A DNA stretch of 12,705 bases, taken from assembly GCA_046758705.1 (NCBI GenBank), contig JBHIAT010000106.1, forward strand, positions 1 through 12,705, in the 5' to 3' direction. Each line of letters opens with the position of its first letter. Positions within the stretch are counted from its first letter, which is position 1. This DNA is from Candidatus Bipolaricaulia bacterium. GTDB lineage: Bacteria > Bipolaricaulota > Bipolaricaulia > JBHIAT01. Positions 781-4,837 of this stretch are shown piece by piece. The notes below the pieces were generated by a model. It saw only the letters and a program-made list of their open reading frames with translations. It searched no databases and was not told the origin of the DNA. The position numbers and the translations under genes are program-made.

Positions 781-960
781 TGTTCATGGGTGTCTGATGC
801 TCCTCCAGCAAGCTAAGACCCTCTGAAAGCTGATAGCCGATTCCTGGTCAAAAAGTTGCATCAGCCACCTGTTACAGGATATGCTCAGAGCACCTGGAAC
901 GCAACTTTGCGTGGGGAGGCGTCAGGAAAGAACTGCTAACGGTGGGGGAGATGAAATTAT

Positions 961-1303
961 ACCTTCTAGCGGCTAAAACCCCGTGCTTGAGCGCGGGGCC
1001 CAGCCGCCAAGTGCTTCACAAACTCCCAAGTTCATGATATAATTCCGATAGGTCTTTGACAACGTATGGGGTTGTTGCCACAATCCCGCGCAACGTAAAA
1101 CGTTGTGGGTATAGCCAGGTGCATTTTGCCAGCGTTTTGTTGTTCAGCAAAAAAGAAGTTAACAACCACGAAGCCTGGCCTAAAGAAACTAAAATGCTGT
1201 GAGTGTCAGGCCGGGCGTGGCCTGCGTGGAGGTTGGGGCCTCTGTGAGAGCAAGTCCCGCCTGTGAAACGAGAAGCCACGTACTTTAGTGCGTGGAGCGT
1301 CAC
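961..1303 (+). mobile_element. Non-autonomous IS200/IS605-family mini-element (PATE-like), 343 bp, no tnpA or tnpB
   Basis: Left end: target TTAT (957-960), guide AAAA (975-978), hairpin CCCCGTGC-TTGA-GCGCGGGG (979-998). Right end: guide GAAG (1272-1275), hairpin CCACGTAC-TTTA-GTGCGTGG (1276-1295), terminal TCAC (1300-1303). Both pairs follow the IS608 rule (AAAG->TTAC, GAAT->TCAA). No target duplication. Confidence 0.88.
1015..1043 (+). promoter_or_regulatory. Strong sigma70-type promoter inside the mini-element
   Basis: TTCACA (1015-1020), 17-nt spacer, TATAAT (1038-1043), with extended -10 TG at 1035-1036. Confidence 0.8.
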
Positions 1304-1320
1304 ATACGATAGCATCTTCC
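1050..1320 (+). ncRNA. Putative TnpB omegaRNA/reRNA (scaffold to 1303, guide from the flank about 1304-1320)
   Basis: Lies between the internal promoter and the right end. Several stems: CAACG/CGTTG near 1090-1104; GCCTGGCCT 1173-1181 with AGGCCGGGC 1208-1216; CCAC/GTGG. The 3' part GCCTGCGTGGAG...CTGTGAAACGAGAAGCC-hairpin-TCAC resembles tnpB-associated right ends. Boundaries are inferred. Confidence 0.65.
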
Positions 1321-2817: not shown

Positions 2818-4031
2818 TTATAGGCGATAGCGGGCGCCGTACTCGTAGGCATACCGGGCTTGCCCGTCGGTGTTCTCCTCAGCCGCTTCGAAATTTTGGG
2901 CCTCATGGAGGGCGAACGACAGGGCTCTGAGCTGCCAGCAGACGAAGATCGCGTCATGATAAACGGGCGAAAAGCCCCGCTCGATATAGCCGCGGGCCAG
3001 CTGATCCACCAGCGGCACCCAACGGCGCGCGTTCAGCTCTGCGCTTCGCTTGTGAAAACCCTCCTCATCCTCATCGCAGAGCGCAAGCACGAGGGCCTGC
3101 TCGGCTTCGGAAACGCCCAGCTCGCCAAGCCGCGCCTCCAGTAGTTCGCCCAGCCCCCGAACGAAGGTGAAGCAATGCTCCAGTTGCTCGTCGAGGTTCA
3201 CATACTGCAGGGTGCGCACGTCCTCACCGATCCGTTCCGGAGCGCGCTCCTTGGATAGCGCGGTGACTAACGTCCCTTTCTCAACCTCAACGGGCATGCG
3301 GCGGTGCCGCCCGTGGAAGGCGATCTGCTTGCACAGCTCATCAAAACACTCTAACACCATGCCGCGCAGCTCGGTGAAGCCCTTCTTGTTGTGCGTCTTC
3401 TGGGTGAGGTAGACCTCGACCACTGGGAAGCCTCCGAGGACGGTATTGACCGTCAGAAACGTATCGATGCCAAAATGGTGTGGCGGGGCGATAGGTTGCC
3501 CAAGCAGGAAGTGGGCCAGTTCCGCCGTCAGCGCCAGTTCCCCGCCCAGAGGCTGCTGGATCGCCTGCCTTCGGGGAAGTAGATGGCGATGAGCGGTCGG
3601 GTGATGTGGCGAGTGATCTGGGCATCGAACGGGCTGCGATCGAAGGAGCCACGGGCCATTGCCGCCCGGTGTTCTTCCAAGCCCTCCAGCAGAAGCGCAC
3701 ACCACGACGACGTCACCGAGCTGATGTCCCCATCCAAGAAGAGTATCCGCCTGAAATCTGTGTCCAGCGCCCGCTTCATACCGGTGACCATCGCTCCACC
3801 CTTGCCGGTCCCGCGCAGCTCGCTTCGCAACAGCTCGACACGCTTGCCGGTGAAACGCTTCCGAAGTTCAGGGAGCGCTTCGCTCAACTGCTCGTAAGTG
3901 CCGTTCGTCGACCAGCCGTCTACGAGATAAACGGCATCGACCCCTTGGGATTGGAGTCCGACCTCCGCAACGAACAACGGGGCGTCCATCTCATTTCGCT
4001 CTGGAATGATGAGCACAGTCGTCATTTTCAC
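2818..4031 (-). pseudogene. Mannosylglycerate synthase-like GT-A glycosyltransferase (GT78-like), about 404 aa, split by a 1-nt frameshift near 3564-3566
   Basis: The N-half (frame of ORF 3528..4205) has GKGGAM, FLDGDI (DxD) and DAQITRHITR. The C-half (frame of ORF 2818..3705) has IQQPLGGEL, FGIDT, KTH and ELRGMVLECF. Likely start is GTG 4031 (GTGA overlap, GGAGG 7 nt upstream) or ATG 4025. May be an intact gene with a sequencing error. Confidence 0.82.
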
Positions 4032-4837
4032 CCACCTGCCTCCTCCCATATGTAAAGTTCCGGTCGGAAATGGCGTAACGCGGGCTCCTGATCCCGTTCC
4101 TGGTTGATGAGGGAGAGGTCGACTTCGGCGCTGATCACGCGTTCGTCTCGCTGAACCTGAGCGAGCACGCGGCCCTTGGGATCGGTGATCTGGCTGAGGC
4201 CGCAATAGACAACATCTCCCTCAGAACCTACGTGATTGGCGGCGGCGATGAAGAGCTGATTGTCCTGGGCGCGGGCCCGGCTGCGCAGTTCCATAAGATA
4301 CTCATAACCCACCGGGACAGCCGTGGGATTGAAGACGATTTTCGCCCCCTGGAGGGCAAGCGCTGCAAAGATCGGGGGGAAGGCGTGCTCGAAGCAGATG
4401 GCGATCCCAATCGGGACCCCACTCACCTCAAAGATTTTAAGGCGATCCCCCGGAGTGAAGTAACGATGCTCCGCCGGATAGAGGTGGGACTTACGATATT
4501 TCCCTAAATAACCGTGCTGCCGGTCGATCACGAACGTGGTATCGTACAACGCCCCTCCGTCCCGTTCCACGATCGTGCCCAGGATGGAGACCTGATGCTG
4601 TCTCGCCGCCTCTACGAACCGCTCAGTCGTCGGGCCGGGAATCGGCTCGGCCAGCTCGTGAAACTGATCCCCCAACCGTTTTAAATGATAGCCACTGGTA
4701 AATAGCTCAGGCAAACAGATGATGTCTATCCCGTCACTCTCCTTTAACAGGTCAAGCGCGCGAGTGACGTTCTCTTCTGGAGCACCGAGCGTGCAGTTCA
4801 TCTGGACTGCGCCGATGTGCAATCGCTTCCCATTCAC
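4028..4837 (-). CDS. Carbon-nitrogen hydrolase (nitrilase superfamily amidohydrolase), 269 aa
   Basis: Glu-Lys-Cys triad motifs CLPELF, YRKSHL, ICFEHAFP; also RARAQDNQ and GLSQITDPKG. GTGA overlap with the upstream gene. Confidence 0.95.
   Translation of the reverse strand: MNGKRLHIGAVQMNCTLGAPEENVTRALDLLKESDGIDIICLPELFTSGYHLKRLGDQFHELAEPIPGPTTERFVEAARQHQVSILGTIVERDGGALYDTTFVIDRQHGYLGKYRKSHLYPAEHRYFTPGDRLKIFEVSGVPIGIAICFEHAFPPIFAALALQGAKIVFNPTAVPVGYEYLMELRSRARAQDNQLFIAAANHVGSEGDVVYCGLSQITDPKGRVLAQVQRDERVISAEVDLSLINQERDQEPALRHFRPELYIWEEAGG

Follow-up and report, generated by a model that had tools for sequence, protein, structure and literature searches.

A protein-free IS200/IS605 mini-element that joins a promoter and a conserved RNA module to an omegaRNA-like 3′ end

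Guide RNAs that stand apart from their nuclease, as stand-alone omegaRNAs or as palindrome-associated transposable elements (PATEs) working in trans, are already published (PMC10691335, PMC10055086). The element described here is of this kind: it lies at positions 961-1303 of a 12,705-nucleotide stretch of DNA from a Candidatus Bipolaricaulia bacterium (contig JBHIAT010000106.1; the whole stretch is called the window below), and is probably a mobile, self-promoted guide-RNA gene for TnpB made in trans. A preliminary description of the window had read it as a trans-acting omegaRNA mini-element. That reading is supported; three findings could have spoken against it, namely an absence of further copies, of a tnpB with homologous ends or of covariation in the stems, and all three points turned out in its favour. 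The new point is the front of the element, a promoter followed by a covariation-supported RNA module, which we saw exclusively in such mini-elements. The preliminary description had looked for novelty in the family and its cognate nuclease; the promoter-plus-module front is indeed new, but the candidate partner nuclease is, judged by its sequence, an ordinary ISDra2-like TnpB.

In OMEGA (obligate mobile element-guided activity) systems (Altae-Tran et al. 2021, summarised in PMC10691335), stand-alone omegaRNAs are mobilised and work in trans with compatible effectors. Like them, the window's element has no effector or transposase and shares its genome with effector-bearing loci; unlike them, it has its own near-consensus promoter and a conserved 5′ module that does not come from tnpB, and no such module is mentioned in the text of PMC10691335. 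According to Meers et al. (PMC10055086), PATEs of Geobacillus stearothermophilus often encode omegaRNAs that need TnpB in trans. Those elements, too, are gene-less and have ends in common with tnpB elements, but family and host are different, and the interior is here more than a deletion residue; this comparison is with the text of that paper, and a 5′ domain is possible there. PATEs were described in 2011 in haloarchaea, Haloquadratum walsbyi and Natronomonas (Dyall-Smith et al., PMC3119063). The likeness to them lies in the absence of coding sequence, in near-terminal palindromes, in a short targeting oligonucleotide common with IS605-type transposons, and in the occurrence of both homogeneous and heterogeneous families; they are, however, archaeal, their description predates the omegaRNA, and section 26 of PMC3119063 reports neither a promoter nor a conserved RNA module.

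Two further systems resemble the RNA rather than the transposon. The TnpB-bound RNA of ISDra2 (Nakagawa et al. 2023, PMC10097598) consists of the scaffold from -116 to -1, which overlaps the disordered C-terminal domain, and the omegaRNA from -231 to -117 is cleaved off and unneeded for cleavage. The part of tnpB kept by the mini-element is positionally equal to this required scaffold. The mini-element differs from ISDra2, with its target-adjacent motif (TAM) TTGAT and a 5′ region made of tnpB coding sequence, in having TTAT as its site and a dedicated structured module in the 5′ region. IStrons (Zedaveinyte et al., 10.1101/2023.11.20.567912) are IS605-family elements which likewise join a separate structured RNA to an omegaRNA, and the same authors noted PATEs with IStron ends; IStrons, however, carry tnpB and have a group I intron as the added RNA, while our element has no intron match in Rfam and no protein. 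A limited literature search, with figures and supplements outside its scope, found no description of a conserved 5′ module common to omegaRNA mini-elements.

Copies, boundaries and ends of the mini-element

The element is repeated in its own genome (G000; 3.70 Mb, 319 contigs, 93.9% complete), where a 364-base query gave 20 matches, in agreement with BLAST, and where R1, a covariance model of the 5′ module, found 12 copies. There are three main subfamilies. Subfamily A is the window copy alone; subfamily B comprises C120, C45, an internally deleted copy in C80 and contig-end fragments; subfamily C has six copies (C183, C42, C279, C85, C65 and C63), identical in element sequence where printed, along with partial copies at contig ends (four right ends and three clear left ends). 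Two more copies are distant (C244, C159) and one, in C144, is 5′-truncated. All full copies of A, B and C lie 3′ of TTAT, end at TCAC and have unrelated flanks and no target duplication; in subfamily C the cut can also be read one base earlier. Homology stops at 1303 in nine full copies and five contig-end fragments, and as in stand-alone omegaRNAs the scaffold ends at the transposon boundary, with each copy followed by a flank of its own. Copies bounded by TTAT and TCAC in different surroundings had been predicted in the preliminary description, and it is mainly this repetition of the element that argues against chance. In metagenome contigs (four runs of one study), those matching 1044-1117 and 1266-1302 had a summed depth of 200-520 in three runs with flanks at ~10-13; the sum is over all contigs at least 90% alike and hence is not a copy number.

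Two aberrant copies were noted. At G000:C80 9196-9351 (L012, subfamily B) the left-end hairpin is joined directly to the last ~113 nt, the internal deletion having removed the promoter, the module and the pseudoknot domain. At G000:C144 4464-4620 (L013) the left end and promoter are missing: the copy begins within the 5′ side of the module and, after helix P4, runs directly into a right end (GAAGCCCACGCGCTTTAGCCTTGGGTAACTCAC) of the type found at the tnpA-tnpB element G000:C207, which may be a trace of an earlier, shorter form of the G000 family that had a different right end.

The element and its ends are laid out as follows:

957-960, plus strand: TTAT target site and predicted TAM, outside the element; it precedes all full copies of subfamilies A, B and C
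961-1303, plus strand: the whole mini-element, 343 nt, with limits set where copy-to-copy homology stops; the sole subfamily A copy
975-978 and 979-998, plus strand: left-end guide AAAA and imperfect hairpin CCCCGTGC-TTGA-GCGCGGGG, from sequence and DNA fold, homologous to the left end of the tnpB element G000:C185
1272-1275 and 1276-1295, plus strand: right-end guide GAAG and hairpin CCACGTAC-TTTA-GTGCGTGG, followed by AGCG and the cleavage site TCAC at 1300-1303

The end hairpins, guides and cleavage sites all read in the sequence as the preliminary description had given them. The two hairpins share one layout, with T:G as the sixth pair in both, and are the minimum-energy folds of the DNA strand (z -2.4 and -2.8). 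Terminal inverted repeats are absent, and imperfect subterminal hairpins are present at both ends, as in IS200/IS605 PATEs. In IS608, the four nucleotides adjoining each hairpin reportedly act as a guide that specifies the cleavage site (work by Barabas and colleagues, 2008). This rule fits seven guide/site pairs in four lineages: AAAA/TTAT (left) and GAAG/TCAC (right) in the window; AAAG/TTAC and GAAT/TCAA in a second genome, G061; GAAA/TCAT and CAAG/TGAC in a third, G050; and, for the left end compared at G000:C244, CAAA/TGAT. At the left ends of subfamily C (AATA) and C159 the reading is less clear.

The element has no protein-coding capacity, which is a further property of PATEs. In a blastx comparison of 941-1330 with 12 TnpB frames the best E value was 0.04 and reflected DNA homology of the left end, so at the protein level the earlier statement that no tnpA or tnpB coding remnant exists holds (at the DNA level it does not; see below). 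The longest open frame is on the minus strand and begins, in the window, in the flank. Open over 95-103 codons in all three subfamilies, this frame was considered as a gene, but we rejected it as coding because differences between subfamilies A and C fall evenly on the codon positions (10/13/11), because it is shifted in subfamily C, and because of its start in the flank. Both ends are shared with the C185 element of the same genome, again as in PATEs. Positions 961-1303 of the window are thus confirmed as a protein-free, non-autonomous IS200/IS605 mini-element of the PATE type.

The RNA: a conserved front and a TnpB-like back

Between the ends lie a promoter and ~255 nt of structured RNA, whose parts are:

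1015-1043, plus strand: promoter TTCACA-17-TATAAT with TG at 1035-1036, 11/12 matches in the promoter scan; predicted start at ~1050-1052
1056-1109, plus strand: conserved 5′ RNA module, with helix P1 (1056-1065/1100-1109), helix P2 (1073-1079/1088-1095), loop ACAAUCCC and invariant UAAA (1096-1099)
1114-1199, plus strand: middle domain with pseudoknot, with helices P3 (1114-1120/1173-1179), P5 (1130-1138/1191-1199) and P4 (1139-1148/1158-1166)
1199-1303, plus strand: omegaRNA-like 3′ core, which contains a hairpin (1207-1224) as well as the right end and has its homologue in the final ~105 nt of two tnpB elements, G000:C274 and G000:C185
1304-1319, plus strand: predicted 16-nt guide ATACGATAGCATCTTC, taken from the flank by the rule that the TnpB guide lies just outside the right end (PMC10691335)

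The promoter, with its extended -10 TG, is as the preliminary description had read it. Promoter-like sites numbered 3 in 850-1450 as compared with 0.4 expected from shuffles. Each subfamily has, as do the other genomes, a -10 element resembling TGnTATAAT at the equivalent place. The whole promoter region is alike across lineages (CTTGAYTTCC.CTCC), and the promoter of tnpA in the C27 element is similar to it, the corresponding region there being CCCTTGACCTTCACCTCC. At G000:C27 14650-15000 and G000:C257 1580-1950 (minus strand) only ~7-9 bases separate the -10 box from the start codon of tnpA, so that these two mRNAs for the transposase may have no leader. A second promoter-like site, TTGACA-17-CACAAT preceded by TG, lies inside the module (1056-1084). 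We did not take it as a promoter, because its -10 is not kept, being lost in subfamily C and in G050.

With a strong rightward promoter and no terminator-like site in the scan of 850-1450, neither before nor just after the right end, the main effect of the element could be that of a mobile outward promoter for whatever lies to its right. In the window this would be a 166-aa open frame (1263-1763) that begins inside the element. The frame has, however, no match in Pfam, the flanks of other copies are unrelated and their contexts varied, and a bare promoter has no need of 250 nt of conserved structured RNA, which leaves this the least probable of the explanations considered and one we would scarcely expect to hold.

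The module is a two-helix unit of 55-65 nt in which P1 encloses P2, and it occupies the first ~65 nt past the predicted start. Across 23 distinct sequences the nested fold had 95.9% of its cells paired and compensatory changes in 9 of 16 pairs (41 such cells), a score reached by none of 500 shuffles. An alternative of two local hairpins, the minimum-energy fold of the single module sequence, was rejected, being 82.0% paired as compared with 80.8% in shuffles. The UAAA between P2 and P1 is invariant and the loop retains CAAnCC. In the middle domain, P3, P4 and P5 were 96-100% paired in six sequences of G000, also with compensatory changes, and over the whole RNA 10 of 55 pairs were compensatory as against 3.3 in shuffles. 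The stems therefore covary, in the module and the pseudoknot domain alike. Further downstream, GUGA (1199-1202) could pair by eye with UCAC (1300-1303), as in an ISDra2-like pseudoknot; we claim no pseudoknot there, because the pairing is not kept in all subfamilies. Rfam gave no match at gathering score in the window, and in 900-1400 chance-level matches alone at E values up to 10.

A plain miniature transposon, with no RNA function in its interior and stems that are DNA structures or leftovers of internal deletion, would be in keeping with the origin of PATEs, which arise from IS605-type elements by internal deletion (PMC3119063), and with transposition as single-stranded DNA, in which some stems could act as such. 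But the interior is no deletion remnant, the module being present in no tnpB or tnpA locus searched; all lineages have kept the promoter in one position; module pairs and pseudoknot helices change in a compensatory manner; and conservation extends across phyla. We regard this explanation as quite improbable.

The back of the RNA is of another origin. The last ~105 nt of the C274 and C185 tnpB elements have, in common with the mini-elements, CGTGGAG, GCAAGTTCCG, TGAAGCGAGAAGCC, a hairpin and GGAGTGTCAC, and blocks common to the 3′ core and tnpB ends are CGTGGAG, GCAAGTYCCG, TGAARCGAGAAGCC and GGAGYGTCAC. A joint alignment of four mini-element cores with two tnpB-linked cores gave one common fold, with compensatory changes in the first hairpin. 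Since the tnpB reading frame of C274 and C185 reaches to 15-47 nt before the right end, the shared stretch is the TnpB coding tail. Homology begins directly after the NILQWG codons and extends ~60 nt beyond what the right-end guide, hairpin and cleavage site occupy (1272-1303). The core starts where the required ISDra2 scaffold starts, and the mini-element has therefore kept what corresponds to the working scaffold and lost the remainder of tnpB. A tnpB-derived remnant thus does exist, and it is the omegaRNA part, since the last ~105 nt are homologous to the tnpB 3′ coding tail. Rfam gave no match at 13 tnpB loci and three mini-element loci; because tnpB loci themselves go unmatched, Rfam evidently has no model for these omegaRNAs.

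The front, in contrast, could not be found at any of the tnpB loci searched. R1, run with filters off on 29 tnpB loci of four genomes (G000, G061, G062 and G063; 81,471 bases), did not find the module, and its sole match below E 0.78 was a neighbouring mini-element. Homology to the tnpB 3′ end and right end, as expected of an omegaRNA scaffold, was found for 1199-1303 and, over these 29 loci, not for 1047-1198. The preliminary description had taken the whole ~255-nt RNA for an omegaRNA; this stands for the last ~105 nt and fails for the first ~150 nt. The RNA is chimeric, with solely its last ~105 nt tnpB-like.

One front joined to many TnpB tails

BLAST of 61 genomes (G000 and 60 relatives, none nearer than the same class) found the module in two, G000 and G050. 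An exact-pattern scan of one genome per species gave 10 loci in four named assemblies: a Candidatus Bipolaricaulota metagenome-assembled genome (MAG), Candidatus Hakubella thermalkaliphila, an uncultured Actinomycetota MAG and an uncultured bacterium. R1 was run on 307 whole genomes, while the wider scan of genomes used the exact pattern. R1 copies numbered 12 in G000, 4 in G050, 10 in G061, 13 in G062 and 1 in G063, five genomes from at least two phyla. Within phyla the distribution is patchy: 4 of 151 genomes in the phylum of G000 (among them one divergent contig-end mini-element and one match that is probably false) and 1 of 151, G061 itself, in that of G061. Two pattern scans of metagenome contigs and one of viral contigs gave no match. 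Most of the 33 copies read (out of 40) lie in gene-less elements of ~150-345 nt, made up of left-end hairpin, promoter, module and right end; L081 and L085 look decayed, the C144 copy is among those read, and in none of the 33 does a tnpB gene follow the module inside the element.

Module and promoter are the best-conserved part, with 81% mean column identity across genomes, and the 3′ parts are lineage-specific. When cores were compared with the ends of tnpB elements, the identities were:

G000 subfamilies A, B and C and C244 against C274/C185: 0.62 (A), 0.81 (C244, against C274)
G000:C159 against C14/C33: 0.82
G050 copies against the C67/C19 type of G000: 0.72
G062, L091 type, against G061:C91: 0.71
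G062, L091 type, against G063:C49: 0.62
L096 against G061:C77: 0.60
Main G061 type against G061:C55: 0.59, a weak match

The 3′ tail of each mini-element subtype therefore belongs to a different tnpB lineage, and the lineages involved number at least five or six. The TnpB proteins of the matched lineages are 21-76% identical, and those of C67, C19 and C55 are 21-31% identical to the C185 group. Conversely, L120 (G061:C101, 320-731) has the usual G061 3′ core and TTAC/TCAA ends behind another 5′ RNA segment, which replaces P1-P2; the core is therefore kept without the module. With one front on many tnpB tails and one such core behind another front, the front and back of the RNA thus behave as exchangeable parts. 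Beside this we note an arrangement at G061:C104 1879-2909 (L132/L090), where a tnpB gene is followed after ~500-600 bases by a mini-element of the same orientation; the tnpB element closes with a right end of its own (GGGTAGTTTAC) ahead of the mini-element.

These results raise the question of whether the module is itself the cargo, a mobile non-coding RNA with a partner of its own (a protein, a ligand or self-cleavage) that is carried by IS200/IS605 ends, with the tnpB-derived 3′ stretch kept as no more than a right end or a vestige. Much of the above would suit this: the conservation of module and promoter against variable 3′ parts, the invariant UAAA and the loop CAAnCC, the lack of the module at all 29 tnpB loci, its joining to cores of TnpB lineages that are 21-31% identical, and the four copies in G050, a genome without detectable tnpB. 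However, every subtype inspected keeps 70-125 nt of tnpB-tail homology, where the right-end guide, hairpin and cleavage site take up ~30-40 nt; L120 keeps the core without the module; and the module matches neither an Rfam family nor a known ribozyme. We therefore consider the cargo explanation unlikely.

Partners, mechanism and meaning

A guide-RNA gene for TnpB made in trans remains the best reading, because the 3′ core resembles the ends of tnpB elements in the same genome and corresponds in position to the working ISDra2 scaffold. The genome of the window has intact TnpB and TnpA: the TnpB zinc-ribbon (PF07282) gave 23 matches, 22 of them above the cut-off, with the DNA 3′ of all 23 read, and the Y1 transposase (PF01797) gave 6. 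The C185 element is the tnpB element with homologous ends that the preliminary description had called for, left and right ends both being alike. It follows TTAT, begins with the left-end block GCGGCTAAAAC-hairpin-GGATACAGC and closes in TCAC. Its left end is built as in subfamilies A and B (TTAT, GCGGCTAAAAC, hairpin, GGATACAGCYGCC, -35), and its right end is GGAGTGTCAC. The 393-aa C185 TnpB retains GIDVG, AFESL, HRDHN and two CxxC motifs, and in a sequence search of the PDB it matched the ISDra2 TnpB structures 8h1j and 8bf8 with E ~1e-58, the alignment ending at ILQWG. It is apparently an active and compatible nuclease, with the same predicted TAM (TTAT), in the same genome. The C207 tnpA-tnpB element has the sites of the window's element, TTAT with AAAA and hairpin on the left and GAAG with hairpin and TCAC on the right, and is a candidate source of TnpA in trans. 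Two other loci, G000:C115 and G000:C90 (L036, L040), have long TnpB-like frames (595 and 439 aa open) whose 3′ regions are almost the same. In the 330 bases past the zinc-ribbon match neither has a recognisable IS200/IS605 right end, and these genes may be immobilised or of another TnpB type.

From this we infer how the element would work, from its transcription through TnpB loading and cleavage to the part played by the 5′ module. TnpA (Y1) made elsewhere in the genome would recognise the two imperfect hairpins and their guides (AAAA for TTAT, GAAG for TCAC) and transfer the element in single-stranded form to sites 3′ of TTAT. The internal promoter would drive transcription rightwards across the right end into the flank, giving a transcript whose last ~105 scaffold nt resemble those of the C185/C274 ISDra2-like elements and whose 3′ tail, ATACGATAGCATCTTC, would be the guide. 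TnpB made in trans would load this RNA and cut the rejoined empty site, TTAT followed by ATACGATAGCATCTTC, and recombination after the cut would restore the element. The first ~150 nt (P1-P2 module and pseudoknot domain), which appear not to be TnpB-derived and take the place of the dispensable 5′ region of the ISDra2 omegaRNA, would most likely aid accumulation, folding or processing of the RNA.

Several observations weigh against this reading. The window's own subfamily A is one diverged copy, whose 3′ core is 0.62 identical to C274 or C185 when shuffles reach a maximum of 0.56-0.59, and the match of the main G061 type to C55 is, at 0.59, weak as well. Three-fifths of the RNA is not omegaRNA-like. 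No matching TnpB is present in the assemblies of three of the five module-bearing genomes (G050, G062 and G063): G050, with its four copies, has no PF07282 or PF01797 match in an assembly that is 85% complete, and in G062 and G063 the right ends of the TnpB genes do not match the mini-elements. Some copies may combine a TnpA site with a TnpB TAM that does not fit it, since C244 pairs a TGAT left-end site with a C274-type core. Finally, an empty-site joint across 961-1303 was not found in the contigs of the four runs. All of this fits old or orphaned copies and incomplete assemblies, but because of it we call the guide-RNA gene probable and no more.

In connection with the empty site we note a 399-base contig of run X4, which matches 905-960 with two differences and departs exactly after TTAT (960). 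Its further sequence is neither the element nor the right flank, and two pieces of it were not found in G000; the contig could stem from a related strain in which this site has received a different insertion, or from some other context. Elsewhere in the window, the neighbouring genes encode parts of ABC transporters, a nitrilase-type hydrolase, a formamidase-like protein and a glycosyltransferase. The last looks like one gene split by a frameshift or an assembly error: the overlapping minus-strand frames 2818-3705 and 3528-4205 (together 2818-4205) each match part of the mannosylglycerate synthase glycosyltransferase domain, at profile positions 158-235 and 26-153, respectively.

A more far-reaching proposal, which we make tentatively and hold to be rather doubtful, is that promoter and P1-P2 module form a portable RNA cassette, a new RNA family with a specific activity that has repeatedly been joined to minimal omegaRNA scaffolds and the ends of unrelated IS200/IS605 lineages. 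Each lineage would thereby have been turned into a stand-alone, highly expressed guide-RNA gene, and the element family would live as a parasite on TnpB transposons, passing from phylum to phylum in hot, vent-type habitats. Candidate activities are the loading of RNA made in trans onto TnpB against competition from the mRNA of the nuclease itself, directed processing of the 5′ end or self-cleavage, and binding of some other partner.

If the module raises the level, folding or loading of an omegaRNA supplied in trans, this would explain how the element competes with the nuclease's own transcript, and the module could then serve as a ready-made leader for expression of TnpB guide RNAs; if it does none of that, the element is an ordinary PATE. 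Gene-less omegaRNA elements mean that guide RNA and nuclease are separable, an arrangement thought to be ancestral to CRISPR arrays with trans-acting effectors.

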